The notes beneath the pieces are model-generated. The model did no database searches and was not told where the DNA came from. It saw only the letters and a list, made by a program, of their open reading frames with translations. DNA of 54,502 bases from a virus. Its lineage: Duplodnaviria > Caudoviricetes. Shown here piece after piece: positions 3,912 to 43,471 of the stretch. Location of the stretch: the IMG/VR virus record IMGVR_UViG_3300020044_001189, positions 1-54,502 of that record. One strand, given 5' to 3'. The position numbers and the translations under genes are program-made. Numbering within the stretch: position 1 is the stretch's first letter; every line of letters begins with the position of its first letter.

Positions 3912-4088
3912 ATGGGGTGGATTGTTGCGTTGATTTTGGTAGTTTTGATGATCCCGCTTCTTGGCATGCTATTCATGGACGTGTTGCAAACAAAAAAAGA
4001 AGCCCAAGTGCAGATTCAAAAAATGGAAAACCTGAGACAAAAAATTGAAAAGGAAAGAAGAGATGCAAGCGCCGATAGACCCAAATGA
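3912..4088 (+). CDS. Small membrane protein (N-terminal TM plus coiled coil)
   Basis: MGWIVALILVVLMIPLLGMLF...; lies in the lysis cluster. Confidence 0.55.
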   Translation: MGWIVALILVVLMIPLLGMLFMDVLQTKKEAQVQIQKMENLRQKIEKERRDASADRPK

Positions 4089-4332: not shown

Positions 4333-4341
4333 GGAGCAGAC

Positions 4342-5470: not shown

Positions 5471-5535
5471 ACCAAACTAAAACCCTAGAATGAATCCCAA
5501 AGATTTCGGGGCAAGATAGCCATGAAAGGGCGCTG

Positions 5536-6171
5536 ATGTCAACTCCATCATGGGTAATGACGTATGACAGTCTGAACTCGACGGTTCTCCAATATTTGGA
5601 ACGTCAAGATCAGGCTGTCGTAAACGCCATCCCCACATTCATTACATTATGTGAGTTTGAGATTGCCCAAGAAATTAAAACGCTTGGGCAGTTAAGTGTT
5701 GTCACCTCAAACATGTCAGCAAGCAACCCAGTGATTCAAAAACCTGCACGTTGGCGCAAGACTGTATCCATGACAATCCTTGGCGCAACCGAGGCAACAC
5801 CAGTCCTATTGCGTAAGTTTGAGTACCTAAAGACGTATTGGCCTAACGTCACACTGACGGGTCTGCCTGAGTTTTACTCGGACATTGACTATGACCATTG
5901 GTACTTTGCTCCGACACCAGACCAAGCCTACAGCTTTGAAGTCCTGTACTACGAGAGAATTCCTCCCTTATCTTCCGAGAACCAAACCAATTGGCTTACC
6001 CAAAATGCGCCAAATGCAATGCTGTATGGAACCCTTTTGCAGGCCATGCCGTTTTTGAAGAATGACGCACGAGCCATCTTCCAACAAAAATATTCAGAGG
6101 CAATTAATGCGCTGAAGACTGAAGATACGACCAGAGTTGGTGATCGACAAACAATTGCAGTGGATAGCTAA
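5536..6171 (+). CDS. Head-tail adaptor / tail tubular protein (podovirus-like)
   Basis: MTYDSL...YLER, P.PDQAY..EVLYY, NWL..NAP.AMLYG.L pattern of podophage adaptors. Confidence 0.6.
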   Translation: MSTPSWVMTYDSLNSTVLQYLERQDQAVVNAIPTFITLCEFEIAQEIKTLGQLSVVTSNMSASNPVIQKPARWRKTVSMTILGATEATPVLLRKFEYLKTYWPNVTLTGLPEFYSDIDYDHWYFAPTPDQAYSFEVLYYERIPPLSSENQTNWLTQNAPNAMLYGTLLQAMPFLKNDARAIFQQKYSEAINALKTEDTTRVGDRQTIAVDS

Positions 6172-6173
6172 AC

Positions 6174-9142: not shown

Positions 9143-9375
9143 TCCCGTATGACCCTCGTGGCATGAGTTGGGATCAATATTGCAAGTTGACCGAAGAGTT
9201 GTTTGCTCCCCAGCAACTTGGCAATGTGCATGAGGATCATTGGAGACAGTGGGTCGATGGGTTAACTGGGATTGGATACTTTCTTGATTCTGGCGTACCT
9301 GACAGCAGAGGCTTTACCAATTGGCAAGATTGGGCGCAACAGTTTGTTGGCATCATGTCAATATCGTCCAATTGA
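9139..9375 (+). CDS. Hypothetical Trp-rich virion-region protein
   Basis: 78 aa ORF with ATGA overlap. Confidence 0.55.
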   Translation: MIPYDPRGMSWDQYCKLTEELFAPQQLGNVHEDHWRQWVDGLTGIGYFLDSGVPDSRGFTNWQDWAQQFVGIMSISSN

Positions 9376-9399
9376 AAAAACATTTTAGAGGGTAAGGAA

Positions 9400-11445
9400 A
9401 TGGCAAATCTTTTTAATAATCAATATGAAGATCTAGCATCACAGGGTAGGTATGGCGATACCATGCTTGCTCATATTACCCCCGAAGAAGCGGCATTGTT
9501 GAAGGCAAGGGGCGGTGCTGGGACTATTAATCCCCAAACTGGGTTGCCTGAGTTTTATTGGTCTCCTCAACAGGCAAATAATTTTTTATCACAACTTCCT
9601 CCTTTAGAGCCACTTCCATCATTAGGACAAGCGATAGCGCCAGAAGCCGCGCAAGCCATTTCTCAAAACATACCCAAAATTACAGTTCCACAGGAGGGTT
9701 TTGGTCTAGGTATTAGACCAGCATACGAAAAAGTTAATCCTGAATTTGACCAATATGCAGATAAACAATTTAGCGGCATGGGTGGTGTCAAGGTTACAGG
9801 CTACACAGTACCAACCGAGCAAACATTTGCAAGTAAACCACTTGAAGCCAAGTATGACGAAAAGGGTAACTTTGTACATTTTCAACTCGCTGGTGGCGAT
9901 TATTTACCAACCGATCCAAATCAACCAAACATAGTTGCTTCACCAAAAATAAATGCAAAAGGCGAGTTATTCGATTATGGAGTCTTTGATTTAAGTAAAC
10001 AGGATAGTGGTGGCTTTGGTGACTTTATCGGTGGGCTTGTAGAAGACTTTGCCCCAATGATCATAGCTGGGTTGACTGCTAATCTTCTTGGGCCTGCCGC
10101 TGGCGCTCTTCCTACCACGGCTGGTGCAACTGGTGCGGCGGCAGTTGGCAGTGGTGCTTTAAGCCCCTATGCGGCACAGGCGGCTGGTGCTTATGGTGGA
10201 AGTTCTGCGGCGGCGGCGGCGGCGGCGGCTGGAAATCTTGCAGGTATTACAACAGCAAGTGGGATACAGGATGCATTGACGCAAGAAGCATTGTCAAGGA
10301 TTGGCACAACTTATGGTGGCAATCTTACTCCCGCTTCCTTAGATACCTCTCAACTTAGTTCTGATCCAAGTTTTAAAGCTGACTACAGTCTCAGTAAAGG
10401 CGGCGGGGATCCCGGGATCAAGGCAACCAATCAAGCTTCTTTTGCCGATCCCACAGTTAGTCCTGTCGATTATTCTTTAGATCCAGTAAGTCTTAATGGC
10501 GGGCCCTTGCCAGCGGGGCCGGGCATGAAATTGCCCTCAATGCCTGCACTAAATTCAATGAATGGTGGACAAGGGTTAACAACTCCCGCATTTGCGGATC
10601 CCGGAACAATTCCCGGAACAGTTGGTGCTAAGGGGCTTACGCCCTTTAATGCTGTCCCTGACCTCGGAGACCCAAAATCGTTCATCAACAACCCAGACGT
10701 CACAGGCTTGCCAAGATTAGATTCGGACGTTTTTAAACCAACAACCAACTACACGGATATGTTAAAAAATGTTGGGGAAGTTTTAAGTAAATTTGACGGT
10801 TCTGGCAAGGGTGGTACACAGGGTGGGTCTGGGGGCGGTCTTGGAGACTTTGGCTCATTGCAGTTTGGTCAGAGCTTTCTGCCCGGCTCCTCCTACAGTG
10901 CACCAGAATCTTCTATGGTTAAGCTTAAAGAACAAGCAATTGTTCCCGCCTTAGCCGCAGTGCTCCAACAGAGGGGCATGAACGTCAATCAACCAAGCTT
11001 TGCTGGTGGCGGTAGGGTTCATCGTCCTGAGTTCATCACTGGCAAGACTGGGCACTACGCGCAAGGTCGCGGTACAGGGCAATCAGACGACATTCCAGCC
11101 GTCTTACACGACGGTGACTATGTAGTGGACGCCGACACGGTTGCGGCCTTTGGTGACGGTTCTAGCAAGGCTGGGGCGGGTGCTTTAGAGCAATTCCGTA
11201 AAAGCATGCCTGAGCACCACAGTGGCGGTGGTCAACCTATCCGTGCCCAGATAGCGGATGGCGAGTATGTCCTACCCGCTGGTTTTGTGACCTCATTGGG
11301 TCGCGGATCAAACAAAAATGGCGCAAAGATGTTGGACGCCATGAGAGAAGAAATAAGGGCGCACAAAAGATCGGCTCCTGACACTAAAATTCCCCCCAAG
11401 GCAAAAAAGCCCATGCAATACATGCGTGAGGCAATGAAAGGCTAA
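9400..11445 (+). CDS. Internal virion / ejection protein
   Basis: N-terminal GRYGDTMLAHITPEEAALLK..GGAGTINP.TGLPEF; C-terminal FAGGG...GTGQSDDIPA.L.DGDYV and IADGEYV motifs. Confidence 0.6.
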   Translation: MANLFNNQYEDLASQGRYGDTMLAHITPEEAALLKARGGAGTINPQTGLPEFYWSPQQANNFLSQLPPLEPLPSLGQAIAPEAAQAISQNIPKITVPQEGFGLGIRPAYEKVNPEFDQYADKQFSGMGGVKVTGYTVPTEQTFASKPLEAKYDEKGNFVHFQLAGGDYLPTDPNQPNIVASPKINAKGELFDYGVFDLSKQDSGGFGDFIGGLVEDFAPMIIAGLTANLLGPAAGALPTTAGATGAAAVGSGALSPYAAQAAGAYGGSSAAAAAAAAGNLAGITTASGIQDALTQEALSRIGTTYGGNLTPASLDTSQLSSDPSFKADYSLSKGGGDPGIKATNQASFADPTVSPVDYSLDPVSLNGGPLPAGPGMKLPSMPALNSMNGGQGLTTPAFADPGTIPGTVGAKGLTPFNAVPDLGDPKSFINNPDVTGLPRLDSDVFKPTTNYTDMLKNVGEVLSKFDGSGKGGTQGGSGGGLGDFGSLQFGQSFLPGSSYSAPESSMVKLKEQAIVPALAAVLQQRGMNVNQPSFAGGGRVHRPEFITGKTGHYAQGRGTGQSDDIPAVLHDGDYVVDADTVAAFGDGSSKAGAGALEQFRKSMPEHHSGGGQPIRAQIADGEYVLPAGFVTSLGRGSNKNGAKMLDAMREEIRAHKRSAPDTKIPPKAKKPMQYMREAMKG

Positions 11446-11447
11446 AA

Positions 11448-12407
11448 ATGGTAGATCTCCTCCAAAGTTCACAAACGACGGCAACGCAAGCGCCAGAGTA
11501 TTACAACAATTATCTGAGCAATATTGCTCAACAGGGTACAAGCGCAGGAGCCAACGCCAAGTACATTGGTGCTACTGACTTGCAAAACCAAGCATTTGCC
11601 AATGTTGGGCAGGCTGGTACAAGCTATCAGCCAGCCCTTACAGCCGCCCAAAATACTATGGGGCAAGCAATTGGCGCTCAAAGCCCCTTATCTGCCGCGC
11701 AACAATATTTTGACAATGCAAATGTTGACCAATCTGCGTTAGCTAAGCAGTACATGAGTCCCTACACCCAAGATGTGGTCAATTCAATTGGCACTTTGGG
11801 TCAAAGAAATATCCAACAAAACTTGGCTCCTCAAGCTACCGCAGGTGCGGTTGGTACTGGTCAATTTGGTTCTACTCGTGGCGCTCAAGTGCTTGGTCAA
11901 ACGCTTCAAAACGCAAATACAGATATCTTGGCGCAACAAAACCAAGCATTGCAGACTGGCTACCAAAACGCCATGGCAAACGCTCAGAGGCAACAAGCAT
12001 TGCAAGCCCAACTGGGTCAATCTGCCGCAAATGCCGCTAACGCAGGGCAACAAAACTTGATTACTGGCGCTACAGCGCAGGGTAACTTGGCTGGGCAACA
12101 ACAGCAGTTGGCGTTGAATAACATCAATAGTCTGTTCAACCTTGGAACCCAACAGCAACAGATTAAGCAAAACGAACAAATGTTCCCGTTGGATATTGCG
12201 GCAAAGCAGGCTGGTTTGTTGCGTGGCTACACCATCCCAACATCTACTGTAAACACCTACCAAGGCTCACCGTTGTCTGCTGTTGCCGCATTGGGGGCAA
12301 CCACCGCTGGTATGTTCACCAAAAACGATCAGGGCGTAACCCCATTTAGGCAGTTTACAGATGCGTTTGGAAATGCTTACGACGACATTCAGAATATTTT
12401 TAAATAG
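11448..12407 (+). CDS. DNA ejection (pilot) protein, Q/A/G/N-rich
   Basis: YMSPYTQDVV and GQFGSTRG motifs and low-complexity helical composition typical of podophage ejection proteins. Confidence 0.65.
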   Translation: MVDLLQSSQTTATQAPEYYNNYLSNIAQQGTSAGANAKYIGATDLQNQAFANVGQAGTSYQPALTAAQNTMGQAIGAQSPLSAAQQYFDNANVDQSALAKQYMSPYTQDVVNSIGTLGQRNIQQNLAPQATAGAVGTGQFGSTRGAQVLGQTLQNANTDILAQQNQALQTGYQNAMANAQRQQALQAQLGQSAANAANAGQQNLITGATAQGNLAGQQQQLALNNINSLFNLGTQQQQIKQNEQMFPLDIAAKQAGLLRGYTIPTSTVNTYQGSPLSAVAALGATTAGMFTKNDQGVTPFRQFTDAFGNAYDDIQNIFK

Positions 12408-12416
12408 GGATAAATC

Positions 12417-13958
12417 ATGGCTCTTCCAGACCAAAACGTAGTCGCAGAGAATGCAATTTCAAAGTTGCAAAACGCCGCCACGGAAAGGTTGGGCGCTCTG
12501 CCGCAAATCAACCCAGCCGACCCACTTGGTAGGCGACCAAACCAATACGGTGAATATCAAAACCAACTTAAAGAGATTCACGATAAGTTGGAACAAAGAT
12601 ACGCAAACCCAAATTGGTTTGATATAGCCGCTGGTTTTGCAAAGCCTCAGCTTGGTGGATTCATCGCTTCTTTGGGTAGCGCAAACGAAGCAATGGCAAA
12701 AAATATTGAGCAACAACGCGCTCAACAAATGCCGCTTGCCGCTCTTAAATTAGAGATGTACAAAAACCAGCAGTTGCAAAACCAAGCTATCGATGCAAAT
12801 GAAATCTATGAAAGAGATATGGATTTATATGGCTACGTTACAGAAGGTGCAGTTGGAGATATCAAAAGATTAGTCGGAAGCGAACACCCAATTGCACAAG
12901 GTGCAGATGCAAATAGGGAAGGTCGTTATAAAGAAATTGAATCTCAACGAGGCGTAGCGGCTACCCAATTGGAGTTGGAGCAGGCTATTGCAAAAAATCC
13001 TTACTTGGTTGTTAAAACTAAGTTGTTTAAGGCTGGCGCACAGACACCAGAAGAAGTTGAAAAATTAAACGGTCAATTAAATAATGCAATTCCACCGGGG
13101 ACTGACCCAACTGTATGGGCATCAATGGGTGTACAAGAAAAGCAAGATCAGATTGCAAAATATGCTGATGATCAACTAAAGCTCCAAATGAGTGAAGGTG
13201 CGGCATCTTTGCATGATGCCAAGGGTGCTGTTGATAGGTTGAAAACTTTGCGTACCGTTCGTGAGCTTGCGACTGATCCTGATATGGCTCCAGTATTTTC
13301 TGTGTTGAACAACGCTGATGCATTTTCGTTGTTTAAGAAAATTACAGACACAGCGGGGGGTAACCTTGGCGCTGTGATGGAAGGCTTGAAAAACGCCATC
13401 AGATCCCAGTATAGTAATGAGAATGATCCTAGTGGAGTCAAGCGTCAAAAGGCTGATTTGTTGTTTAAAACAATTGCACAGATGGCAATTCAAAACCGCA
13501 ACAACGCATTGAACCCAACAGATGCGTATCAGACGTTGGTTGATCAAGCCACCCCGGGCCTCGACAACTCGCAAAAAGGCTTTATCTCGATTGTTGACCA
13601 AATGGGTTTGAGGGAACAACTATTGGTTGATGAGCACAACCTAAGGGTAAAAAACCGTATACCTGCAATGGAGATACTTGACGAGCGCAAATACCCAAGT
13701 CTTCGTGAATTGCGCAAACAATATAAAGACGAGGCCAGAGAATTGGCAAAAACAGATGCATACACCAGAGATCCTTCATGGTTAGATGGTATTACGGTAA
13801 AAATCCCCTCAGGGGCATCAAGACAACCCGAAACACCACAAGCAAAACCAAGCACAAGCGGATCAAGCTCTGGGTCTTCAAGATCAAGACCAACTGAGCG
13901 TGTGATTGATGGCAAGACGTATGTCCTTGTAAACAATTCATGGGTGCTTAAAGAATAA
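12417..13958 (+). CDS. Internal virion protein (helical)
   Basis: 513 aa helical protein in the ejection-protein cluster. Confidence 0.55.
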   Translation: MALPDQNVVAENAISKLQNAATERLGALPQINPADPLGRRPNQYGEYQNQLKEIHDKLEQRYANPNWFDIAAGFAKPQLGGFIASLGSANEAMAKNIEQQRAQQMPLAALKLEMYKNQQLQNQAIDANEIYERDMDLYGYVTEGAVGDIKRLVGSEHPIAQGADANREGRYKEIESQRGVAATQLELEQAIAKNPYLVVKTKLFKAGAQTPEEVEKLNGQLNNAIPPGTDPTVWASMGVQEKQDQIAKYADDQLKLQMSEGAASLHDAKGAVDRLKTLRTVRELATDPDMAPVFSVLNNADAFSLFKKITDTAGGNLGAVMEGLKNAIRSQYSNENDPSGVKRQKADLLFKTIAQMAIQNRNNALNPTDAYQTLVDQATPGLDNSQKGFISIVDQMGLREQLLVDEHNLRVKNRIPAMEILDERKYPSLRELRKQYKDEARELAKTDAYTRDPSWLDGITVKIPSGASRQPETPQAKPSTSGSSSGSSRSRPTERVIDGKTYVLVNNSWVLKE

Positions 13959-15169
13959 TGGCAAAAGAACGAATTCCAACATTAGCTGAGTACAACAACA
14001 ACCCCGGCAACCTGAAACCGCCAAAGAATGTTGTTTACGAAGGCCAACTCGGTCTTGATGAGCACGGCTTTGCCATCTTTGAAAAGCCAGAGTATGGTCG
14101 CAAGGCGCTAGTCAATGACATTAGGTACAAGCTTAAAAATGGCTTGATGACGCCTGAGGCTTTCATTGACAAGTATGCCCCTGCTGGGGATGAAAATCCA
14201 GAAGATTCCAGAGACAACTACAAGCTCCACATAACCCATAACTTGGGTCTCAAGAGTTCAAAGGATGAGTTTCCTGAGGGGTCTGAAGAAAAGATTGCCG
14301 ACCTAATTACGTCGTTTGAGACTGGCAGTCCTTATGTACCAAAAGAAACTACTGAAGGAACATCCCCCACTCCTGTCTCAGGTACAACAAGTAAAGATCG
14401 AGATATAAATCCCATTTATGGGGGTATTGCTGGTGCAACCGCTGGCGTAGGGCTTGCTACCCCGATTGCAACATACAAGAGCTACTACGACCTTGCACGA
14501 TCTGCCGCAAACATGATGCCTCGCTACGAGCCAACCATGGGGATTGAGCCAACAATTGGGTCTTCTATGTCAGCAGGTGAACCTGAACTGACAAGTGGAG
14601 AAAAGTGGACAAAAAATTGGGCTGGCAAAGATGGCGTGCCAGATGCTTCTGCAAAATATCAAAGAAGCAAAGGTCAGGGAAAAGTAACTGGTCGAGTTAC
14701 TAAAATGTGGGGGCCCTCTGAGCCAATGGAGCCCGGCGTCTTTAAGCCCGGACGCCTGTCACTTGCCCCATCTACCACGCCTGAACCTTTTTTAGCCGCC
14801 GCAGAGGATGAAGCCGCACGTTTGGCTTCCCGCGCCAAGCCCGGCCCCGTCAGGTCTGCCTTGGGTCAACTTGCTGGGAACTTTATGATCCCAATCAAGG
14901 CTGGTTTAGCGGGCTTTGGGACAGGGTTTGGTGCACTAGATGCGTACAACAGGGCCAAAGCAGGGGACACCTCAGGATCTGTTGCGGCAGGTACTGGGGC
15001 CCTTGCAAGCGCCTTGTCACCCTTTGTGTCTGGTGCTGGCCCGCTCTCCATGGCGATCCCCATCGGCTTGTACGCAAGAGACAAGATGACAAGGATGACC
15101 CCAGAGCAAGCTAGGGCGCACAATGAGGAAATTAAGAGGCTTGGGTATGACCCAAGCTTTAATCCTTAA
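13958..15169 (+). CDS. Internal virion protein with N-terminal lysozyme-like (NNPGNL) domain
   Basis: NNNPGNLK...FAIF..PE.G..AL...KYAP..EN motif of virion-associated muralytic-like domains. Confidence 0.6.
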   Translation: MAKERIPTLAEYNNNPGNLKPPKNVVYEGQLGLDEHGFAIFEKPEYGRKALVNDIRYKLKNGLMTPEAFIDKYAPAGDENPEDSRDNYKLHITHNLGLKSSKDEFPEGSEEKIADLITSFETGSPYVPKETTEGTSPTPVSGTTSKDRDINPIYGGIAGATAGVGLATPIATYKSYYDLARSAANMMPRYEPTMGIEPTIGSSMSAGEPELTSGEKWTKNWAGKDGVPDASAKYQRSKGQGKVTGRVTKMWGPSEPMEPGVFKPGRLSLAPSTTPEPFLAAAEDEAARLASRAKPGPVRSALGQLAGNFMIPIKAGLAGFGTGFGALDAYNRAKAGDTSGSVAAGTGALASALSPFVSGAGPLSMAIPIGLYARDKMTRMTPEQARAHNEEIKRLGYDPSFNP

Positions 15170-15396
15170 AGTTTTCCGCGCTTGTCTTCCAATGCGTTGG
15201 CTACCTCGGTATTGAGGGATCGAACGTAGTTCACGCACATAGTTAACTCAGCACGCCTTATGCTGGGCATTGCCGCCATGATGAAGGCATTGGCAAGCTT
15301 CACAAGGTCATCCTCAAGGAAGTTGTAGTTCTCCTCAAGATTGACGCTACGAAACGCCTCGTTGATCTCTTCAACGGTTAGGTAAGTGTTGTTCAT
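15166..15396 (-). CDS. Hypothetical protein
   Basis: 76 aa ORF at the end of the leftward operon; stop overlaps the convergent gene's stop (TTAA). Confidence 0.6.
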   Translation of the reverse strand: MNNTYLTVEEINEAFRSVNLEENYNFLEDDLVKLANAFIMAAMPSIRRAELTMCVNYVRSLNTEVANALEDKRGKL

Positions 15397-15716
15397 TTGG
15401 TTTTGCTTCCTCTTTTCTTACGATTAGCCATAATTATTTTTCCTCTAGGTGTTTGGGTCCAATGGGGCTTCTTTGGTTTTTCTTTTTGTATTTGATCCTC
15501 ATGAAGTTTGTTGATCATTTGCATCCGCTTCTCTGGGTTATCCCATATCCCAGCCTCTTTCATGGCAGAAACCTGCTCAGGCTTTAAGGTAAACCTAGTC
15601 CTGCTTCTCTCTTCTGCCTCATTCATCTCTTCCAACAAAATATCAAATTTTTCATCTAAAGCTTCACGAATAAAAAGAAATTCTGCTATTGATAAAACAA
15701 TTCTGATGTCGTCCAT
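15393..15716 (-). CDS. Hypothetical protein containing a copy of the scaffold C-terminal motif and a basic tail
   Basis: FTLKPEQVSAMKEAGIWDNPEKRMQMI is 18/27 identical to the scaffold segment at 41216-41296; AAGGAG RBS. Confidence 0.7.
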   Translation of the reverse strand: MDDIRIVLSIAEFLFIREALDEKFDILLEEMNEAEERSRTRFTLKPEQVSAMKEAGIWDNPEKRMQMINKLHEDQIQKEKPKKPHWTQTPRGKIIMANRKKRGSKTK

Positions 15717-15726
15717 TTTTTACTCC

Positions 15727-15876
15727 TTAACTGAACCAAAGAAAAAAGCCATGCAGTATCCCAATGGGAAAGAACAGGGCCCCAGCGATTAAGAAACCCC
15801 ACATTGCTTGCGAGAAGCAAGTGAAGATGTGTGTGAGCCATGCAAAGAAGCATGCCCATCCAAGGATGTATCCCAT
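15727..15876 (-). CDS. Small 2-TM membrane protein (not in ORF track)
   Basis: MGYILGWACFFAWLTHIFTCFSQAMWGFLIAGALFFPIGILHGFFLWFS, 49 aa; TGATG coupling to the upstream gene. Confidence 0.65.
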   Translation of the reverse strand: MGYILGWACFFAWLTHIFTCFSQAMWGFLIAGALFFPIGILHGFFLWFS

Positions 15877-16643
15877 CAGCGCTCCAATCCTGTTTTTGCG
15901 TACCAAAAGGTCAAGAGTGCCTCAAACATCTGCCAAGCGCGATCTAGTTCCTCGCGTGTCCATTCCTTGACGTAGACCAGACCCGGTTGGGTGACCGAGA
16001 CAAACACGTTTGCGCACCTTGCGTTGGGTATCTCCAAGCCCTTGGCGTATGCCACCAACTGCATGGGCAACTCGTCGTACATCGCAATGTCTGAAAAATG
16101 CTCAAACTCCTTGGTCTTGAAGTCCACCACGATCCCGTCACCGTCCTTGGAATACAGGTCAAGCTTGCCACCGTACCCAAGCTTGGAGGCAAAGGCGGTC
16201 TCGGTATGCCACCAAGGACTGCCAAACACCTCATGGACAGCGTTATCGACACCCACCTGATGCTCGGCATGGGTAGAGGTCATCACGCCGCCGTAGAACT
16301 TCTCTAGCGACTCATGGATGGCTGTACCGCGCTCTGCCGCCATCTTTGCCTGCTCCTTGGAGTCGCGTTGGATGCGGGCGATGAATTGATCCTCTGGCTC
16401 GCCTTCAGCCCTTGGGAGGGTCAAGGCCGCCATCATCATTTGGTTCATCTTCCATGACTCAAGCCCCGGCTTTGCCATCACGCCCATGATGGTGGTCACC
16501 GACGGCACATAGTTGTGCTTGCGAGCGTCTCTGAGGGTTGTGGGGCGGTCTGAGCCGTCCTTTGCCTTCACCGTGTACATCGGTTTCCCATTCTGGTCGT
16601 ACCAGTGTTGGGACTCACTTGCTCTTGCAATGATTGTTGTCAT
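15876..16643 (-). CDS. PD-(D/E)XK exonuclease (Cas4/RecE-like phage exonuclease)
   Basis: PSVTTI, RGTAIH, GYGGKLDL, VDFKTK and QLVAY motifs. Confidence 0.8.
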   Translation of the reverse strand: MTTIIARASESQHWYDQNGKPMYTVKAKDGSDRPTTLRDARKHNYVPSVTTIMGVMAKPGLESWKMNQMMMAALTLPRAEGEPEDQFIARIQRDSKEQAKMAAERGTAIHESLEKFYGGVMTSTHAEHQVGVDNAVHEVFGSPWWHTETAFASKLGYGGKLDLYSKDGDGIVVDFKTKEFEHFSDIAMYDELPMQLVAYAKGLEIPNARCANVFVSVTQPGLVYVKEWTREELDRAWQMFEALLTFWYAKTGLER

Positions 16644-16771
16644 TTGTTCTCCGATGTGACTTTGACTGACTTGGCGGAGTTGATTGTGTTTTCAAACGCA
16701 GTTGCGACACCCATCACGCCGTAGGTGGCAATAAAAAACCCAAAGACTGAGCCAACCAAAAAATTAAACAT
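16640..16771 (-). CDS. Small membrane protein (not in ORF track)
   Basis: MFNFLVGSVFGFFIATYGVMGVATAF..., 43 aa; GGAGG RBS; ATGA overlap. Confidence 0.55.
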   Translation of the reverse strand: MFNFLVGSVFGFFIATYGVMGVATAFENTINSAKSVKVTSENK

Positions 16772-16780
16772 GATGCCTCC

Positions 16781-17068
16781 TTAGTATCTGGTTCTTGGTG
16801 CGCAAGTGACCTCAACCACAATGTCTGCGGTGTAGCCATTGATCTTGCGTTTGGCGTAGATCATCACGGCGCGGGTGTTGTTTGTTTCACACTCGTTGAT
16901 CGCATAGATGACCTCGTTCCTGCTCAACGGTTGGACGTTGGCATCAACCTCAAGGTTTTGGAGCTTGTAAGACCCCGCATCAGGTTTTTTTGGTTCCCCC
17001 ACGCTGGCGTTCCAAGACGACCCTGCGGCGCATCCTGTCAAGGCAAGTAGTAAAAGAATGTATTTCAT
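16781..17068 (-). CDS. Lipoprotein (possible superinfection exclusion)
   Basis: MKYILLLLALTGC signal peptide with LTGC lipobox; GAGG RBS. Confidence 0.65.
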   Translation of the reverse strand: MKYILLLLALTGCAAGSSWNASVGEPKKPDAGSYKLQNLEVDANVQPLSRNEVIYAINECETNNTRAVMIYAKRKINGYTADIVVEVTCAPRTRY

Positions 17069-17078
17069 CAAATTTTCC

Positions 17079-17441
17079 TCAGTAAATGATCTTTGATCGC
17101 CATACATTGATGCGCATTCCGTGGACTGATCGACTGTCTGCAATCTTGCTTCCTGCGTGTTCAATGATGTTGTTTTTTATTGCCATCCTGACAATGTGCC
17201 CCCAAGCGCGAGGCTCAGGGGGGTTAGGAACATTCAAACTGTCTGCCCTAACCTGCTCTGTGGTGAACTCATGGTGCATCCTTGCATATTGGACAAATGT
17301 TTCATAAGCCAATTTTTTCCAATCTTCACCAGCGTTATCAGCCGCAACCTTTGCCAAGGCATGACCAATTTGTAAGCCCGTAGGCGGGGGCTTGTGCCCC
17401 CCAAACAGGTCGCGTGTAAATTCGTCCCATTCGGTTTTCAT
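17079..17441 (-). CDS. Hypothetical protein (winged-helix-like)
   Basis: FTTEQVR...PPEPRAWG motif seen in phage early proteins. Confidence 0.6.
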   Translation of the reverse strand: MKTEWDEFTRDLFGGHKPPPTGLQIGHALAKVAADNAGEDWKKLAYETFVQYARMHHEFTTEQVRADSLNVPNPPEPRAWGHIVRMAIKNNIIEHAGSKIADSRSVHGMRINVWRSKIIY

Positions 17442-17443
17442 GG

Positions 17444-18118
17444 TCAGAAGGGCAAATCGTCTTCCATGTCGTCAAAGCCACTCTTAGATGGAGCCTGAGT
17501 GGGGCTTGAGGAAGCCTTTAAGGGGGCCTTAGGGGACTTCAGGGCACGCCACTCAGGGGAAGACTCAATCTTCTCCTTTAGGCCCTTGCTGAAGGTCTCA
17601 AAGAGCGCCATGTCGGGCTCTGCCAAGCGGAACATCTGAAGGTCGTTGATTCCCTCTGGCAAGCCAAACTTTTTGACCTGTGAGGGGATGGGGGAGATGC
17701 TGGCGACGTTGGAGAACATCTTGTTGCCGTCCTTGCCGGGGCGGTGTATCACGCTCAGCATGCACCACGCACCTAGCGCGTTGGAGATGTCAAACCGTTG
17801 GCTTTCCTCGTCCGTAAACTGCTTACCGCGCCATCCTTGCAGGTCAAGGCGCAAGTTAGCTTTCTCGTTCAGGCTAAGGGTGTAGTTCTTAAAGATTGCC
17901 ATTGGGTCACCCTTTTCGGTGACCAAGGGTTTTCCTTCGCTATCCTCGCCGTGAAGCTCCCAGCCAAACATGACCTTGCGCAGTTGTTTAATCTGTCCAA
18001 GGTACTCGGTTTGTTGGGTTCCCAAGTCGATGATGCGGTAGCAACGAGCGACATGTGAGCCAGCGGGCACGGGGATAAATGATGATGAGGATGATGATCC
18101 TTCGACGATAAAGTTCAT
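17444..18118 (-). CDS. Putative ssDNA-binding/annealing protein
   Basis: PAGSHVARCYRIIDLGTQ N-terminus; acidic SSB-type tail GFDDMEDDLPF; upstream of the exonuclease. Confidence 0.65.
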   Translation of the reverse strand: MNFIVEGSSSSSSFIPVPAGSHVARCYRIIDLGTQQTEYLGQIKQLRKVMFGWELHGEDSEGKPLVTEKGDPMAIFKNYTLSLNEKANLRLDLQGWRGKQFTDEESQRFDISNALGAWCMLSVIHRPGKDGNKMFSNVASISPIPSQVKKFGLPEGINDLQMFRLAEPDMALFETFSKGLKEKIESSPEWRALKSPKAPLKASSSPTQAPSKSGFDDMEDDLPF

Positions 18119-20126: not shown

Positions 20127-20374
20127 TGTCTCAAAATTGTTTATTTGAAAAGCTAGATGAGTCTTTTAGGGATGAGTGGAAAAACATGCCTGAATACGTT
20201 CAAGAAGATTTGACTCCTTACAGGGTAATTAACGTAAGATTTAGAAATGAAGAAGATGTTGCGTTGTTTGAAAAGCTGATGGAACAAAAGATTACTGAAA
20301 AGCAAAAGACATTGTGGTTTCCATATGCAGAGCCCCGCAGAGCATCTTTGTATAGGTACGTTGATGAATCCTGA
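20123..20374 (+). CDS. Small protein typically paired with TET-associated glycosyltransferases
   Basis: EWKNMPEYVQED...VRFRNEED...QKIT.K.KTLWFP; overlaps the GT gene. Confidence 0.55.
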   Translation: MMSQNCLFEKLDESFRDEWKNMPEYVQEDLTPYRVINVRFRNEEDVALFEKLMEQKITEKQKTLWFPYAEPRRASLYRYVDES

Positions 20375-21230
20375 TTACCCAATTTACATTGTGTCTAAGG
20401 GGCGGTGGGAGTCTAGGCTTACCAGCAAGGCGTTGGAGCGCATCAATGTGCCATATCAAATTATTGTGGAAGAGCAAGAGCGGGATGCGTATGCAAGCGT
20501 GATTGATCCAAAAAAGGTGTTGGTGTTGCCGCAGTCGTATTTGGATGAGTACGAGACATGTGATGAGGTGGCGGGGAAGTCCAAGGGCCCCGGCGCGGCT
20601 CGCAATTTCGCATGGAATCACAGCATCACCCTTGGCGCAAAACGCCATTGGGTTATGGACGACAACATCGCATCTTTCAACCGATTGAACCGCAACTTGA
20701 TGTGCAAAGTTGAATCAGGAACCATCTTCAAAGCCTGCGAAGATTTTGTTGATCGTTATACAAACGTAGCCATCGCTGGATTTAATTACGATTTTTTTGC
20801 CAAGGCCAAAGAACAGATACCGCCGTTTGTTTTGAACACGCGGATTTATTCGTTGCTGTTGATTAAGAACGATTTGCCAATTAGATGGCGAGGAAGATAT
20901 AACGAAGACACCGATTTAAGTTTGCGTGTACTCAAAACTGGCATGTGCACCGTTCAATTCAACGCCTTCCTACAAGAGAAAGCGACAACACAAACCCTTA
21001 AAGGCGGAAACACTGACGAGTTTTATGCTAAAGAGGGCACGTTGCCAAAATCGCAAATGATTGCTGACTTGCATCCTGACGTGGCAAAAGTTGTTTGGCG
21101 TTTCAATCGCTGGCATCACCATGTTGATTACAGAGCATTCAAGAAAAACAAACTTAGACGCGTTGAAGGTATTGACATCCCAAACAAAGTAAACAATTTT
21201 GGGATGAAACTTGTGGAGACAAAAAGGTGA
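20364..21230 (+). CDS. TET-associated (GREB1-like) glycosyltransferase
   Basis: PIYIVSKGR, GPGAARNFAW, HWVMDDNI (DxD-like), RYNEDTDLSLRVL and KGGNT motifs. Confidence 0.75.
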   Translation: MNPDYPIYIVSKGRWESRLTSKALERINVPYQIIVEEQERDAYASVIDPKKVLVLPQSYLDEYETCDEVAGKSKGPGAARNFAWNHSITLGAKRHWVMDDNIASFNRLNRNLMCKVESGTIFKACEDFVDRYTNVAIAGFNYDFFAKAKEQIPPFVLNTRIYSLLLIKNDLPIRWRGRYNEDTDLSLRVLKTGMCTVQFNAFLQEKATTQTLKGGNTDEFYAKEGTLPKSQMIADLHPDVAKVVWRFNRWHHHVDYRAFKKNKLRRVEGIDIPNKVNNFGMKLVETKR

Positions 21231-36600: not shown

Positions 36601-37054
36601 AGATTCAGTGTTGGCTTACTTCAAGCGCAAGGGTGGATACAACAAGGGCGGCGTGGTTCGCAAAGCCGAGGGTGGAACAATTGACATCAAGGGCATTGGT
36701 GTCAGAGAAGCCCCCAACATGGATGTCAAGGCTTTCATTTCGCCTAGACCCGCAATGAAGAACTCATTGCCTGTGGGCGGTGTATTCCAGCAAACGCCCC
36801 AACAGCCTGCGCAGGGTATGCCCCAAGGCCAGCCGCCTCAGGGAATGCCACAAGGAATGCCTCAAGGTATGCCACAAGGAGCGCCTCCCCAAGGAATGCC
36901 ACCACAGCCGCCAAGCAACATCTTGCAGATGACCCCTCAGGGGCAAGCAATGAGCGCCATCAAGCCCCCTCAGATGGCTCGTGGGGGCAAAGTTGATCGT
37001 GACATGATGATGCTTCACGTTATGAACCGCAAAATGAAAGTAAAGCATGGATGA
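33683..37054 (+). CDS. Large polyvalent-type/internal virion protein
   Basis: PGGENYREML, EELQSDWHQKGR, PDAPFK..W...ALKR and GEGMKGFYD motifs; xxGG linkers; QGMP repeat tail. Confidence 0.6.
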   Translation: MKKLVGEGKPFHSAVDKTAALLKRKVGTGAEFMKELMGVSGVKPTELQERGLTEIMGMPKMTHDQFMAALSANPAPKIREKVLSDEDEGGDDPRHLTPEERNYGPNNQTHHRKWTLPGGENYREMLIKAPKGVDNQEKIMELEAKLRRIPMFNSTPEQQADIAKYYNQIRDLKAEEAASPKPFRGVEHHFGGEPNILASMRVKDRLVPDLEGPHNVTIIGEGGVSNKKFNTREEANAFADVKKQGGYKTKITPLNNKKYLHLEELQSDWHQKGRDKGYKDLDVDNQLQKKYRELNEIGESYKKLAIDQRVATAVANGMDEAEARRLILIGTENTPLEQYAPDEKSKIDILRRQQELEELENKANLVPDAPFKKNWEEMALKRLIHHAAEKGYHGVVVTPGVEQAKRYSIGNHIDELHYNPETHRLIGSNEGQRIVDKKSVPPEELIEHVGKEVASKLMQQEPNVNGLRSLTGEQLHIGGEGMKGFYDKKVPNILNSIGKKYGVKTELGGHKLLGDPSERADASERLGHADVRFADMTTPQIQAFNAKLDEANAKQLHYFPITEDMRKDVLANGLPLYNKGGTVHMAKEGDMDHMMLEMMGRRMATGGSPTTKGYVTHEPKKPHPEVGTRFKATPQGNLAAMKAFDLMKHEGKGSIVPIPYDATTRDNRVTEVSGHNLINPLVTEAGFDYSLDPTNMAQNIGGASNSGIAKRVQDRVNQAAKEHKGDVFLAPNTMGEDAENFSHHPAHIVLDLMAQRQLNKNTLRALSDDLRGQPELKRNARTGEVTKTYPYTKFLGYDHPNMFQQVIKGGHGLEATPGDLRKKMMERLSLVNMQKLLDYNMGDLKAAILDPELATDPKAYMGRTFVKAQPGAALRPSTHTSYDTDYTGINEGGLGSNRPFEVLMPDVTESIYQELKARPAKTVKTPAQMRAQVVGAIEKRKEKFAQPINARVINNAGLYEEGLKQGEFDPKNVDSVLAYFKRKGGYNKGGVVRKAEGGTIDIKGIGVREAPNMDVKAFISPRPAMKNSLPVGGVFQQTPQQPAQGMPQGQPPQGMPQGMPQGMPQGAPPQGMPPQPPSNILQMTPQGQAMSAIKPPQMARGGKVDRDMMMLHVMNRKMKVKHG
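36812..36904 (+). repeat. 12-bp-period coding repeats (QGMP)n
   Basis: QGMPQGQPPQGMPQGMPQGMPQGAPPQGMPP. Confidence 0.7.
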
Positions 37055-39509
37055 CCTACTAGAAAACGAAGACGGCTCAATAGACGTTGAGTTGCCAGAC
37101 ATGAGCACCGAGGTGCAAGAGATGCCTGACGGCTCTGCTGTGGTGACCATGGAGGACATCGAGGGCCCTGAAGAATCGCCAGACTTCTATGCCAACTTGG
37201 CTGAGTCAATGAGCGCTTCCGAAATGAGCGAGATCGCCATGCGCTACATGGACTTGTTGGCGAACGACAAGGAAGCACGCAAGGAGCGCGATAAGAAGTA
37301 CGAGGAAGGTCTAAAGCGCACGGGTATGGGCAATGACGCCCCCGGCGGCGCAACCTTTGCAGGGGCCTCCAAGGTCGTTCACCCCGCCATGGCTGAGGGT
37401 TGTGTTGACTTTGCCGCCCGCGCCATGAAGGAGTTGTTCCCACCCGACGGCCCTGTGCGCACCAAGATTTTGGGTAAGGTTGACGACGAGAAGACCGAGC
37501 GTGCTGAGCGTAAGCGCGACTACATGAACTGGCAGATCACCGAGCAGATCGAAGAGTTCCGCGACGAGCAAGAACAGTTGTTAACCCAGCTTCCCCTTGG
37601 TGGTTCCCAATACTTCAAGATCTGGTACGACGACAACAAGAAGCGCCCATGCGTGGAGTTCTTGCCTATTGATCGTGTGATCCTGCCCTTTGCGGCTACC
37701 AACTTCTACACCGCCCAACGTGCGGCAGACGTAAACGAGATTACCCAGTGGGAATTCAAACGTCGAGTTAAGAGCGGCATGTACCGCGACATTGACTTTG
37801 TGCGTGCCACCGAAGAGGTCGAGCCTACCGCCGCACAGAAGGCCAACCAAAAGATTGAGGGCAAGAAGTGGCAGGACAACGATGACGGCTTGCGCAAGGT
37901 CTACCATATCTACACATGGTTGGAGCTTGAGGACGACAAGTTTGCCAAGGGAGACTCTGCCCCCTACATCCTGATGATCGACGAACTCAGCACCGAGGTG
38001 GTGGGCCTATACCGTAATTGGGAAGAGCAAGACGAGACCATGACCAAGATGGATTGGATTGTGGAATTCAAATTCATCCCTTGGAGGGGTGTCTACGCCA
38101 TTGGGCTACCTCACCTTATCGGCGGCATTTCAGCCGCCTTGACGGGCTCATTGCGGGCCTTGTTGGACTCTGCGCACATCAACAACGCCGCAACTATGCT
38201 GAAGTTGAAGGGTGCAAAGATGTCTGGGCAGTCCCAGCAGGTTGATGTCACCCAAGTGGCGGAGATTGAGGCGGCTCCCGGCGTCGATGACATTCGCAAG
38301 ATTGCCATGCCCATGCCGTTTAACCCACCCTCCCCCGTGCTTTTCCAGTTGCTAGGCTTTTTGGACACTGCCGCCAAGGGTGTGGTATCCACCGCAGAAG
38401 AGAAGATTGCTGACGCAAACTCCAACATGCCTGTGGGCACAACCCAAGCCCTTATTGAGCAGGGTGCTGTGGTGTTCTCAGCCATCCATGCACGCCTGCA
38501 CGACAGCCAAGCAAGGGTCTTAAAGATCCTTGGACGCCTGAATCGTTGGCACTTGGACGAGCAACGCAAGGGTGAGGTGGTCGCTGACCTTGAAATCAGT
38601 CGCCAAGACTTTGCCACCAACACCGATGTCGTGCCTGTAAGCGACCCACACATCTTCTCTGAGACCCAACGTATGGCTCAGATGCAGGCTGTGATGCAGT
38701 TGATGCAAGGAAACCCTGACGTCTTCAATAAAAAGAAGGTTGTTGAGCGATTCTTAAAGCAATTGAAGGTTCCAGCCATCAACGAGTTGATGATTGATGT
38801 CCCTGCACCTGAGATGCGCACCATCGCAGACGAAAATGCGGCTATGTCGATTGGTCAGCCATCGTATGCCTACATACAGCAAGACCACATCTCCCACATC
38901 CAAGGGCACTTGCAGTTTGCAAACGACCCTGCCTACGGCTCAAACCCCTTCTTTGCGCCCCAATTCACGCCCCACGCTATCGAGCACATCAAGCAACACA
39001 TGACTTTGTGGTACTTGAACCGCATGAATGGCTATGTAGCACAGGCTCGCGGTGGAAAACCCGTGACCAACTACGAGGATGCGAAGCTGACGGGCATCAT
39101 TGACCAAGTTTTTGCCGCTGTTGGACAGCATGTGAGCTTGGATACCTCCGAGGTGTTCCAACAAATCATGCCGCAGTTGCAGGCACTGATGCAACGTGCC
39201 CAACAAATGCAAAAGCCACCTGTTTTGCCACCAGATGCGCAGGTCGTCAAGGACACCAGCATGGCGGAGACGCAACGCAAACAGCAAAAAGACCAGTCAG
39301 ACGCTCAGTTTGCGGCTCAAAAGCTTCAGGCAGAGCAACAAGAGCACCAGATGGACATCCAAGCAAAGATTGCCATCGAAAATGCAAAGCTGTCGCACCA
39401 AACCATCCAAAATTTGGGGCAAATTCAGCTAGATGCGGCACAAAACCCGCCTCAACCACCTCAGTTACCACAACCACCTCAAGGAGAGCCAAATGGCAAT
39501 ATCGGATAA
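37047..39509 (+). CDS. Portal protein (P22-like, large)
   Basis: FAGASKVVHP, ELFPPDGPVRT, LPLGGSQYFK and PVGTTQALIEQG motifs; Q-rich C-terminal barrel. Confidence 0.85.
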   Translation: MDDLLENEDGSIDVELPDMSTEVQEMPDGSAVVTMEDIEGPEESPDFYANLAESMSASEMSEIAMRYMDLLANDKEARKERDKKYEEGLKRTGMGNDAPGGATFAGASKVVHPAMAEGCVDFAARAMKELFPPDGPVRTKILGKVDDEKTERAERKRDYMNWQITEQIEEFRDEQEQLLTQLPLGGSQYFKIWYDDNKKRPCVEFLPIDRVILPFAATNFYTAQRAADVNEITQWEFKRRVKSGMYRDIDFVRATEEVEPTAAQKANQKIEGKKWQDNDDGLRKVYHIYTWLELEDDKFAKGDSAPYILMIDELSTEVVGLYRNWEEQDETMTKMDWIVEFKFIPWRGVYAIGLPHLIGGISAALTGSLRALLDSAHINNAATMLKLKGAKMSGQSQQVDVTQVAEIEAAPGVDDIRKIAMPMPFNPPSPVLFQLLGFLDTAAKGVVSTAEEKIADANSNMPVGTTQALIEQGAVVFSAIHARLHDSQARVLKILGRLNRWHLDEQRKGEVVADLEISRQDFATNTDVVPVSDPHIFSETQRMAQMQAVMQLMQGNPDVFNKKKVVERFLKQLKVPAINELMIDVPAPEMRTIADENAAMSIGQPSYAYIQQDHISHIQGHLQFANDPAYGSNPFFAPQFTPHAIEHIKQHMTLWYLNRMNGYVAQARGGKPVTNYEDAKLTGIIDQVFAAVGQHVSLDTSEVFQQIMPQLQALMQRAQQMQKPPVLPPDAQVVKDTSMAETQRKQQKDQSDAQFAAQKLQAEQQEHQMDIQAKIAIENAKLSHQTIQNLGQIQLDAAQNPPQPPQLPQPPQGEPNGNIG

Positions 39510-40357: not shown

Positions 40358-41338
40358 ATGGCAGAAAAAGATAAACAAGAAATTGAGATTCATGTCAAGG
40401 AAGAGAAGGACGGCTCCGCTGTTGTTGCCTTGCCTGAGGGTCTTGATATGGGCGAAGAGCTTGATGAAGAGTTTGAACCTTCACAAGAAGTTAAGAACGA
40501 AGCTGATGGTGGTTCCGTAGAGGAAGACGATGACCATCCTGATGACACAGAGGCTATGCGTGCCGCCAAGCGGGCAAAGCGCAAGTCCAAGAAGGAGCTA
40601 TGGCGCAATACAAACAAGGAGCGTGAGCTTCAATTGCAACTGTTAAAGCGCCAAAACGATGAGTATTCCAAGCGTTTGTCGGACTTGGAGCGCAAGACCC
40701 AATACTCAGAGTTGGCGCAGATTGACAAGCAGATCGAGGACGAAAACCTTCGCCTTGAGTACGCCAAGATGAAGATCTCCGAGGCGGCTCAGGCTGGTGA
40801 CGGTGACGCCATGGTTCAAGCCCAAGAAATGATGTACGACTCACGCGAAAAGCTAGGTCGTTTATCTGGAGTTAAGAACCAGTTCAATCGACCAGCCCAA
40901 CAGAGCCAACCTGCCCCTGATCCTCGTATGCAAAGGCATGCGGCAATATGGATTGAGCGCAATGCTTGGTACAAGCCTGACCTCGGTGACACCGACAGTC
41001 GCATTGCCAAGAGCGTCGATGAGGAGCTTGTTAAGGAGGGCTGGAATCCCACCGAGGCAGATTATTGGGATGAGCTTGACAATCGCTTGCAAAAATATTT
41101 GCCCCACCGCTACAATGGCTCCGCAGAACGAAATTCGTCTGAGAGAAAACCAAGGAATGTAGTGGCAAGTTCAGGGCGTGAAGCATCAGCTTCTTTTGGT
41201 GGATCAAACCGAACCTTTACGCTCTCACCCCAACAGGTGAGTGCAATCAAGGAGGCGGGGATGTGGGAAAACATCGAGTCCCGCAATCGAATGATCCGAC
41301 GCTATGCGCAACAAAGCCGAAACATGGAAGGTAAATAA
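40358..41338 (+). CDS. Capsid scaffolding protein
   Basis: Acidic N-terminus, long coiled coil, W.ERN.WY and YWDELD.RL, C-terminal LSPQQV.A motif; upstream of the capsid gene. Confidence 0.7.
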   Translation: MAEKDKQEIEIHVKEEKDGSAVVALPEGLDMGEELDEEFEPSQEVKNEADGGSVEEDDDHPDDTEAMRAAKRAKRKSKKELWRNTNKERELQLQLLKRQNDEYSKRLSDLERKTQYSELAQIDKQIEDENLRLEYAKMKISEAAQAGDGDAMVQAQEMMYDSREKLGRLSGVKNQFNRPAQQSQPAPDPRMQRHAAIWIERNAWYKPDLGDTDSRIAKSVDEELVKEGWNPTEADYWDELDNRLQKYLPHRYNGSAERNSSERKPRNVVASSGREASASFGGSNRTFTLSPQQVSAIKEAGMWENIESRNRMIRRYAQQSRNMEGK

Positions 41339-42556: not shown

Positions 42557-43471
42557 ATGGCCGCACCAATGCGCAGTACGGACTTTAGAAGTATTGTTGA
42601 CCCTATTCTCAAAGAATGCTTCGATGGAGTCTATGCCCAACGTGCCGACGAATGGTCACGAGTTTTTCGTGAACAAGACGGTATTCCCCGCAACTACCAT
42701 GAAGAACCCGTCCTGTACGGTTTCGGAGCCGCTCCTCAGTTACCTGACGGCACTCCTGTTACCTACCAACAAGGTGGTGTCCTGTTTCTGAAACGCTATG
42801 TGTACAAGGTGTATGGCTTGGCCTTCGCTTTGACCAAAGTGTTGTACGAAGACGGCGATCACATCCGTATCGGTCAGGTTTATGCACGCCACTTGGCTCA
42901 ATCTTTGGTGGAAACCAAAGAATTGTTGTCAGCTAACGTGTTGAACGTAGCCTTTAACTCCGCCTACCCCGGTGGCGACGGCGTGTCTTTGATTAGCACC
43001 GCCCACCCCATCGTCAACGGTACTGTCAGCAACCAGTTGTCTACAGCCGCTGTTTTGTCTCAAACATCTCTCGAACAGATGCTGATTCAAATCCGCCAAG
43101 CAGTTGACAACAACGGCAAGCGTATTCGTTTGGTTCCCCGCCAATTGGTGGTCGCGCCCGGCAATATCTTCCAAGCTGAAGTTTTGTTGAAATCTGTGTT
43201 GCGTACTGGCAATGCAAACAACGACATCAACCCTGTCAAGTCCATCGGTTTGTTGGACGAAGGCGCGGCTGTTCTGTCACGTTTGACTTCCAGCACCGCA
43301 TGGTGGGTTCAGACCGATGCTCCCGAAGGCATGAAGCTTTTGATGCGTCGTCGTTTGGAGAAGACCATGGAAGGCGACTTTGAGACTGACTCAATGCGCT
43401 ACAAAGCCACCGAGCGTTACGACGTTGGCTTCACCGACTGGCGTGCCATGTACGGCACACCCGGCGCTTAA
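42557..43471 (+). CDS. Major capsid protein (HK97 fold, Mu gpT-like)
   Basis: EEPVLYGFGAAP, GGDGVSL..TAHP, LVVAP, GNANNDIN, EGDFETDSMRYKATERY. Confidence 0.85.
   Translation: MAAPMRSTDFRSIVDPILKECFDGVYAQRADEWSRVFREQDGIPRNYHEEPVLYGFGAAPQLPDGTPVTYQQGGVLFLKRYVYKVYGLAFALTKVLYEDGDHIRIGQVYARHLAQSLVETKELLSANVLNVAFNSAYPGGDGVSLISTAHPIVNGTVSNQLSTAAVLSQTSLEQMLIQIRQAVDNNGKRIRLVPRQLVVAPGNIFQAEVLLKSVLRTGNANNDINPVKSIGLLDEGAAVLSRLTSSTAWWVQTDAPEGMKLLMRRRLEKTMEGDFETDSMRYKATERYDVGFTDWRAMYGTPGA

Follow-up and report, generated by a model that had tools for sequence, protein, structure and literature searches.

Why would a small protein encoded far from the head genes of an uncultured freshwater tailed phage carry a copy of the C-terminal motif of the phage scaffold? 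The question is raised by IMG/VR virus record IMGVR_UViG_3300020044_001189 (Duplodnaviria; Caudoviricetes), a complete 54,502-base record that has direct terminal repeats and was analyzed over its whole length (positions 1 to 54,502, hereafter the window). In it, a minus-strand gene encodes a 107-amino-acid (aa) protein that shares a segment of ~35 residues with a scaffolding-like protein, whose plus-strand gene lies about 25 kb away. Our tentative answer, to which we give a probability of roughly one in three, is that this segment is a scaffold-derived capsid-docking tag that would load the 107-aa protein into procapsids, with the basic tail of the protein contacting nucleic acid. The argument turns on the following features.

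15393..15716, minus strand: 107-aa modular protein with an N-terminal helix, a scaffold-type motif and a basic tail (36 homologs; AlphaFold2 model)
15597..15689, minus strand: residues 10-40 of this protein, predicted long acidic amphipathic helix
15492..15596, minus strand: residues 41-75, predicted scaffold-type helix-loop-helix (core residues 42-68)
15396..15476, minus strand: basic tail (residues 81-107), a portable module that is invariant throughout the family
37047..39509, plus strand: portal
40358..41338, plus strand: 326-aa scaffolding-like protein between portal and major capsid protein (phrog_28737, function unknown)
41213..41332, plus strand: scaffold residues 286-325, C-terminal helix-loop-helix with the shared motif (core nucleotides (nt) 41216-41296)
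42557..43471, plus strand: major capsid protein (MCP), HK97 fold, Mu gpT-like (PF25209, E-value 3.5e-10; PF10124)

The sequence-only reading of this DNA had noted that the small protein matches the scaffold at 18 of 27 positions, and its account of this match proved correct in residues, coordinates and reading frames. Residues 42-68 of the small protein (nt 15513-15593) and residues 287-313 of the scaffold (nt 41216-41296) are identical at 18/27 positions, and the corresponding DNA at 53/81 bases. Three further comparisons support the relationship: BLASTP of the pair (19/34 identities, E 2e-10), a search with the 107-aa query against all six frames of the entire 54.5-kb record, which returned only the protein itself and positions 41204-41311 (E 8.4e-9), and a profile-profile alignment of 26 small proteins with 16 scaffolds (probability 99%, E 2.6e-18, 35 columns). 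BLASTP also reported a second segment between the N-terminal acidic regions (17/50, E 2e-4); the profile comparison did not reproduce it, and we took it to be compositional. Within the motif, per-position entropy correlates between the two families (rho 0.76, p 2e-7) and the consensus residue of the small proteins is identical to that of the scaffolds at 20 of 34 positions. Constraint at the same positions in both families is the pattern that one shared partner would give. As read from the sequence, the motif has no net charge, and therefore contact with a protein would fit it better than contact with DNA.

In the AlphaFold2 (AF2) model of the small protein (mean predicted local distance difference test score (pLDDT) 81.8, predicted template modeling score 0.40), the motif is predicted to form two helices (residues 46-55 and 61-79). 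The acidic helix of residues 10-40 precedes them and the basic tail, with a predicted short helix at residues 90-98, follows. The flanks are thus as the sequence-only reading had described them, and the gene map agrees with its placement of the gene in an operon on the opposite strand about 25 kb away. The N-terminal helix is a possible oligomerization element. Fold searches yielded little: Foldseek with this model against the PDB gave one match at E <=10 and none at E <=0.001, and a search of the ESM Atlas returned no usable match. A wide VIA-align search, which hardly probed the motif and the tail, reached a best Z-score of 4.5; its matches were all single helices or coiled coils aligned to residues 5-45, which makes the matches to the N-terminal helix (Z 4.1-4.5) generic. 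The small-protein profile retrieved only two chance-level rows from the sequences of solved structures. We also considered whether the motif could be a DNA-binding helix-extended-helix of the HeH/SAP/LEM type; the family profiles were not matched: HeH, SAP, Rho_N and other DNA-binding Pfam families had no match in either protein at E <=0.1 or over the 37 members of the small-protein family at E <=1.

Homologs of the small protein were collected from 5.8 billion proteins, yielding 36 sequences of 74-138 aa; the survey of tail- and motif-bearing proteins covered lengths up to 188 aa, and longer fusions may be missed. The N-terminal helix is common to all 36 homologs, with E12, F15, R17, E18, A19 and E35 invariant in 37 sequences. 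Of the 36, 22 carry the scaffold-type motif and fall into two clades. The other 14 form a separate subfamily with a short unrelated linker in its place. Among the 23 motif-bearing sequences nine of the 27 core positions are invariant (F42, L44, V49, A51, M52, K53, G56, W58 and R64). Between the two clades, identity is 0.70 in the motif, 0.69 in the tail and 0.52 in the N-terminal helix, and drops to 0.22 in the linker that follows the motif.

Nucleotide data also point to an old copy maintained as protein. Third codon positions of the small-protein motif agree with those of its own scaffold at only 11/27 sites, which is near saturation and rules out recent gene conversion from the scaffold gene. 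That 18/27 residues nevertheless persist argues for a copy that is old and held by selection at the protein level. For the motif, a crude ratio of nonsynonymous to synonymous differences (pN/pS) lies at 0.08-0.41 for five of six pairs, with pS near saturation. The codon analysis was limited to five genes because a metagenome scan gave no new small-protein DNA. That scan found 13 loci; in the nine examined (L046, L047, L050, L051 and L054-L058, with L048, L049, L052 and L053 left out), the match was a scaffold-like C-terminus, four of the nine were partial open reading frames (ORFs) at contig ends, and no new small-protein DNA was recognized. Taken at the sequence level, the motif is under purifying selection and hence is not a decaying insertion. 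The sequence-only reading had named such an insertion as one finding that would refute it; the motif is indeed absent from 14/36 homologs, but decay is not borne out, since the motif, where present, is conserved to the same extent as the tail. We regard the interpretation given in that reading as supported in part.

What, then, does the motif bind in the scaffold? A Pfam search of the 326-aa ORF gave no family and no enzymatic domain. Its gene lies in the head module between portal and MCP, and its AF2 model (pLDDT 77.7) predicts an elongated, helical and partly disordered protein, as a scaffold should be: an acidic disordered N-terminal part, a helical hairpin (residues 65-177), a small helical region, a 29-residue linker and two C-terminal helices (291-299 and 306-325), the disordered stretches being 32-60 and 255-283. 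Homologs, taken from viral and metagenome contigs, GenBank record MW202545.1 and Caulobacter phage RW, all occupy the same place in the head module, and the gene order is shared with MW202545.1 and phage RW. Although the 16 scaffolds are overall only 27-50% identical to that of the window, V294, A296, K298, A300, G301, W303 and M312 are invariant. The earlier label 'P22-like' holds for the architecture, a predicted C-terminal helix-loop-helix behind a disordered linker, but not for the sequence: hhalign of the 16-scaffold profile with P22 gp8 gave a probability of 0.5% and an alignment outside the C-terminal region. The profile found nothing at E <=0.1 among the sequences of solved structures, and the Foldseek search with the scaffold model returned helical-hairpin matches only (E 0.19 or worse).

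The MCP of the window belongs to a very abundant environmental phage group: 7469 of 8000 scored candidates matched it at E <=1e-10, and the best 120 are at least 92% identical. In loci whose scaffolds hold the motif, the MCP is 72.6-96% identical to that of the window; Caulobacter phage RW, with a 77% identical MCP, has the scaffold motif too. By contrast, the one related record G005 encodes an MCP of 39% identity and a scaffold (locus L039) that ends in a different helix-turn-helix-like sequence, and its tail-bearing small protein (L026) has no scaffold-type motif. From position, architecture and this single contrast it is a reasonable inference that the scaffold motif binds the capsid protein, and we presume the MCP to be the partner of the motif. 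A prediction of the complex between MCP (114-row alignment) and residues 36-80 of the small protein (26 rows) scored 0.01 against a mark of 0.32 and weighs neither for nor against binding.

The basic tail behaves as a constant and portable module. Residues K82, H85, W86, T87, Q88, T89, G92, I95, A97 and R99 are invariant across the family. Over 18 unique copies, identity in the tail is 0.83, 0.86 and 0.50 at codon positions 1, 2 and 3, respectively, consistent with purifying selection on the peptide; the third positions, at 50% against 83-86% at the other two, rule out a conserved DNA or RNA element beneath it. A scan of viral contigs recovered the tail at 22 loci (L021 lies on the same contig as L005), at four of which the full motif is present, at seven its first helix only and at 11 no motif at all. 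The seven have lost the invariant Arg of the second helix; in one of them (L032) the first-helix-like segment comes after the tail instead of before it. The N-terminal domains attached to the tail vary and comprise the acidic helix, other helices, Tad2-like (Thoeris anti-defence 2) domains and gp49-like domains. A Tad2-like domain was identified at L018:2803-3285 (PF11195, E 4.3e-20) and, as judged by eye, in L020, L023 and L029; the proteins of L018 and L020 have the first motif helix between this domain and the tail. A domain of the N4 gp49/Sf6 gp66 family precedes the tail at L027:2716-3078 (PF13876, E 1.8e-23) and, again by eye, in L032. At L035:261-521 an 86-aa basic protein has the tail as its N-terminal part, indicating that it can work at either protein end. 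The surroundings of the tail are stable, with an exonuclease in the same operon at 19 of the 22 loci and a homolog of the 76-aa gene described below downstream of the tail-bearing gene, likewise at 19 of 22. There is thus one syntenic slot with swapped N-terminal domains and a fixed C-terminal module. The sequence-only reading had not noted that the tail is the constant and portable part, or that the first helix of the motif can survive alone.

Outside these environmental contigs the tail is rare. It had no match in 50,697 GenBank phage records, so that the family occurs in no cultured phage there; a tblastn search of GenBank phages with the 32-residue tail also had no match at E <=10, though the low-complexity filter may have masked the query. 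Among 185,579 prokaryote genomes it was found once (L060), on a 25-kb contig of a Burkholderiales metagenome-assembled genome, which is possibly a hint to the host or possibly a mis-binned phage contig. A homolog search limited to the tail (residues 68-107) scored seven candidates, all previously found. One source names a homolog 'L34', and we therefore considered the tail as ribosomal protein bL34/eL39. No match was significant: Ribosomal_L34 (PF00468) matched one of 37 members at E 0.035, below threshold, and an eL39 chain (7cpv_Ll) matched the small-protein profile at E 0.38. The faint sequence likeness to these small rRNA-binding proteins would fit a nucleic-acid-binding peptide and proves nothing.

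Several known systems help to judge what such a protein might do. In phage 80alpha, the C-terminal helix-and-hook of the scaffold is described as lying on the capsid N-arm (PMC5644958), and CpmB of the satellite SaPI1 as competing with this scaffold through a shared C-terminal motif (PMC5644958, Dearborn et al. 2017). Like CpmB, the 107-aa protein is a small non-scaffold protein, helical in the model, that holds a homologous copy of a scaffold's terminal motif, presumably capsid-binding here as well, and an N-terminal helix that could oligomerize. The two have no sequence relation. CpmB comes from a satellite that pirates the phage, whereas our gene is part of a complete phage record in which scaffold, capsid, portal and terminase genes are all present. 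The CpmB motif, a helix plus RIIK hook, forms the extreme C-terminus, whereas the helix-loop-helix here is internal and followed by the basic tail.

For P22, the hook residues Arg293 and Lys296 of the scaffold are reported to face acidic residues of the coat N-arm (PMC12005531), and scaffold residues 238-303 fused to cargo are reported to load it into capsids (PMC9962691). Like gp8, the scaffold of the window is predicted to end in a helix-loop-helix that has conserved basic residues and is flexibly tethered, and the P22 fusions illustrate the same idea, namely that a fused protein can reach the procapsid by means of the binding element alone. The two scaffolds have no detectable sequence homology, and the capsid family is a different one (Mu gpT-like). 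The loading of cargo into P22 is also an engineered process, and its putative counterpart here would be a natural one. The internal proteins of T4 are described as diverse, countering defences and sharing only a capsid-targeting sequence (PMC3012670). One slot with N-terminal domains of several kinds and a constant module resembles them, in pattern only. In T4 the signal lies at the N-terminus, directs the protein to the scaffold core and is removed by the prohead protease; the module here is C-terminal, and no protease gene was recognized in the window. Finally, the nested protease/scaffold genes lambda C/Nu3, Mu I/Z and herpesvirus UL26/UL26.5 share a capsid-binding C-terminus. As in these pairs, a second protein here would carry the capsid-binding end of the scaffold to reach the procapsid, but the nested genes share it through overlapping frames at one locus, whereas the window holds a separate diverged copy (53/81 bases) far away on the other strand. 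PDB entry 8rkc, whose record gives a molecule name only, we take to represent phage JBD30.

The reading that we favor can now be stated in full. The helix-loop-helix would be the capsid-protein-binding element of the scaffold family, and the small protein would use its copy to dock inside the procapsid during assembly, at the site where the scaffold binds the inner face. It would then be enclosed as a minor internal head protein whose basic tail binds the packaged nucleic acid, and when the next cell is infected it could exit together with that nucleic acid. We prefer this reading because the homology is real, the same positions are constrained in both families and the copy is old yet retained; because the scaffold motif is C-terminal behind a linker, as are the coat-binding domains of P22 and 80alpha; because the motif stays with a conserved MCP and differs in the record with the 39% identical one; and because the P22 cargo fusions and T4 internal proteins set a precedent for the principle. 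The single slot with swapped N-terminal domains and a constant C-terminal module argues in the same direction, as does the presence of a gene for an ART-PolyVal polyvalent protein upstream of the portal gene, with one 1123-aa ORF in between. Polyvalent proteins reportedly have been proposed to travel in virions.

A number of observations weigh against this reading. The motif is lacking in 14/36 homologs and 11/22 tail loci, which suggests that it is accessory to whatever the tail does, and the seven loci with the first helix only are odd if coat binding needs both helices. The motif of the small protein is internal, with about 40 residues after it, although known coat-binding elements are terminal. 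The gene is in a presumed early operon and not among the head genes, and packaging is hard to square with a Tad2-like sponge, of which many copies would be required. The scaffold itself is recognized from its position and predicted architecture only, since phrog_28737 has no function assigned and the protein is unlike P22 gp8. The small-protein motif of the window is closer to the scaffolds of sister phages (21/27) than to its own scaffold (18/27), and no covariation between small-protein and own-scaffold motifs was seen in the four records that hold both; however, none would be expected, because the capsid proteins are so similar. The sixth pair of the codon analysis (L015 and L016) differs in the motif by three nonsynonymous and no synonymous changes, with identical tail DNA.

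The last point would suit a functionless remnant, a piece of the scaffold gene that was inserted into a small early gene and is drifting, as would the absence of the insert from 14/36 homologs and its shortening at some loci. A drifting insert should not be conserved between clades like the tail (0.70, against 0.22 in the adjacent linker), keep nine invariant core positions out of 27 in 23 sequences, or retain 18/27 residues and pN/pS of 0.08-0.41 when third positions are near saturation relative to the scaffold copy. We therefore consider this explanation very improbable. Unlikely, though to a much lesser degree, is a competitor or decoy, the main idea of the sequence-only reading: the motif would bind the capsid protein at the scaffold site, but the protein, made early, would cap new capsid protein and not be cargo. 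Assembly might thereby be delayed or tuned, the capsid protein might be concealed from a host sensor, or a co-infecting relative might be prevented from assembling properly. Homology and conservation speak for a decoy as they do for the docking tag, and there is a precedent in CpmB, whose C-terminal helix-and-hook is described as shared with the scaffold and placed at the same capsid-protein site (PMC5644958). The protein is small and, in the model, helical like CpmB, with an N-terminal helix that could dimerize; presumed early expression suits a protein needed before the capsid protein; and its motif is nearer to the consensus of the scaffold family, as the 21/27 match to sister scaffolds indicates, than is the motif of its own scaffold. 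Yet capsid proteins are 72-96% identical among these phages, so that a decoy could hardly spare its own phage. A decoy would account neither for the invariant basic tail nor for its fusion to Tad2-like and gp49-like domains. Many family members have no motif, and the gene belongs to the phage itself and not to a satellite.

It might also be argued that in both proteins the motif contacts some other shared partner, such as the portal, the Cpn10-like protein, a host chaperonin or DNA/RNA, in place of the capsid protein. The first helix and the basic tail would then be one binding unit of an early regulatory or host-takeover protein. The first helix alone adjoins the tail at 7/22 loci (once after it, in L032), and its being kept there suggests that the two work together; the tail is strongly basic, with the faint and non-significant likeness to small rRNA-binding proteins (eL39, Ribosomal_L34); the gene sits among recombination genes; and the capsid protein is itself a presumed partner of the scaffold in this family. 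On the other hand, no DNA-binding Pfam family matched either protein and the motif has no net charge, while its C-terminal place behind a linker in the scaffold and its co-retention with a conserved MCP fit coat binding better. On balance we regard another partner as doubtful, though it deserves to be kept in mind.

The docking tag may be extended to the whole family. In this broader proposal, which is speculative and in our opinion improbable as it stands, an abundant lineage of freshwater phages would maintain a single early-gene slot for interchangeable effector domains joined to a constant C-terminal encapsidation cassette, which loads them into heads for delivery with the DNA. The cassette would consist of a helix or helix-loop-helix from the capsid-binding end of the scaffold plus the basic, putatively DNA-binding tail, and the effector domains would include the acidic helix, the Tad2-like fold of an anti-Thoeris sponge and the gp49-like domain.

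The gene of the small protein is the penultimate one in a short leftward operon, which, together with its surroundings, has the following composition.

1-15169, plus strand: tail and other virion genes
15166-18118, minus strand: short leftward operon
17444..18118, minus strand: first gene of the operon, 224-aa protein with an acidic C-terminal tip (phrog_862, function unknown)
minus strand, within the operon: three small ORFs of 120, 127 and 43 aa
15876..16643, minus strand: PD-(D/E)XK exonuclease of the operon (phrog_298, E 1.7e-15; PF12705)
minus strand, within the operon: 59-aa membrane protein
15166..15396, minus strand: 76-aa acidic protein, final gene of the operon, its start overlapping the stop of the 107-aa gene
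15139..15157, minus strand: weak terminator-like stem-loop directly after the 76-aa gene

The acidic-aromatic tip of the 224-aa protein presumably resembles the partner-binding tip of bacterial SSB. Pfam and PHROG matching gave no family for the 76-aa protein. The stem-loop is rated weak since three such structures were seen in the region against 5.4 expected from shuffles. A rightward operon diverges from the leftward one, beginning at 18472 with a YdaS/Cro-like gene, and because this divergent layout is lambdoid-like we infer that the leftward operon, including the 107-aa gene, is early. The rightward order continues with DUF1376, a TET-associated glycosyltransferase, DUF932, the small and large terminase subunits, the ART-PolyVal polyvalent protein, the 1123-aa ORF, portal, a Cpn10-like protein and the 326-aa scaffolding-like protein, which two ORFs of no known function separate from the MCP gene. 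The glycosyltransferase (20325-21230, plus strand; PF20691, E 3.5e-44) suggests, by its sequence, that the phage DNA carries modified cytosines. The polyvalent protein (30435-33686, plus strand) has 1083 aa and an ART-PolyVal ADP-ribosyltransferase domain (E 1.7e-34); the 1123-aa ORF after it belongs to no recognized family and overlaps the portal start. Directly upstream of the scaffold gene is that of the Cpn10 (GroES)-like protein (39863-40348, plus strand; PF00166, E 2.1e-6), and a Cpn10 gene is annotated at the equivalent place in MW202545.1 and Caulobacter phage RW.

Reuse of the capsid-binding end of a scaffold by a second protein is already known from satellites (CpmB) and from nested protease genes. 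To our knowledge, a free-standing, diverged copy of a scaffold end in an early gene of the phage itself has not been described, although no search was aimed at this point. If the motif docks on the capsid protein, the contact between scaffold and capsid would be defined for a very abundant group of phages, and Caulobacter phage RW, with its 77% identical MCP and retained scaffold motif, offers a cultured system in which this can be studied at the bench. The motif would then also be a short, naturally occurring peptide with which cargo could be loaded into these capsids, and it would indicate that accessory proteins of a distinct class are packaged, some of them with anti-defence-like domains. 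Should the encapsidation cassette prove true, it would be a natural counterpart of both the T4 capsid-targeting sequence and the engineered fusions of the P22 scaffold, and for capsids of the Mu gpT type it would serve as a cargo tag ready for use.

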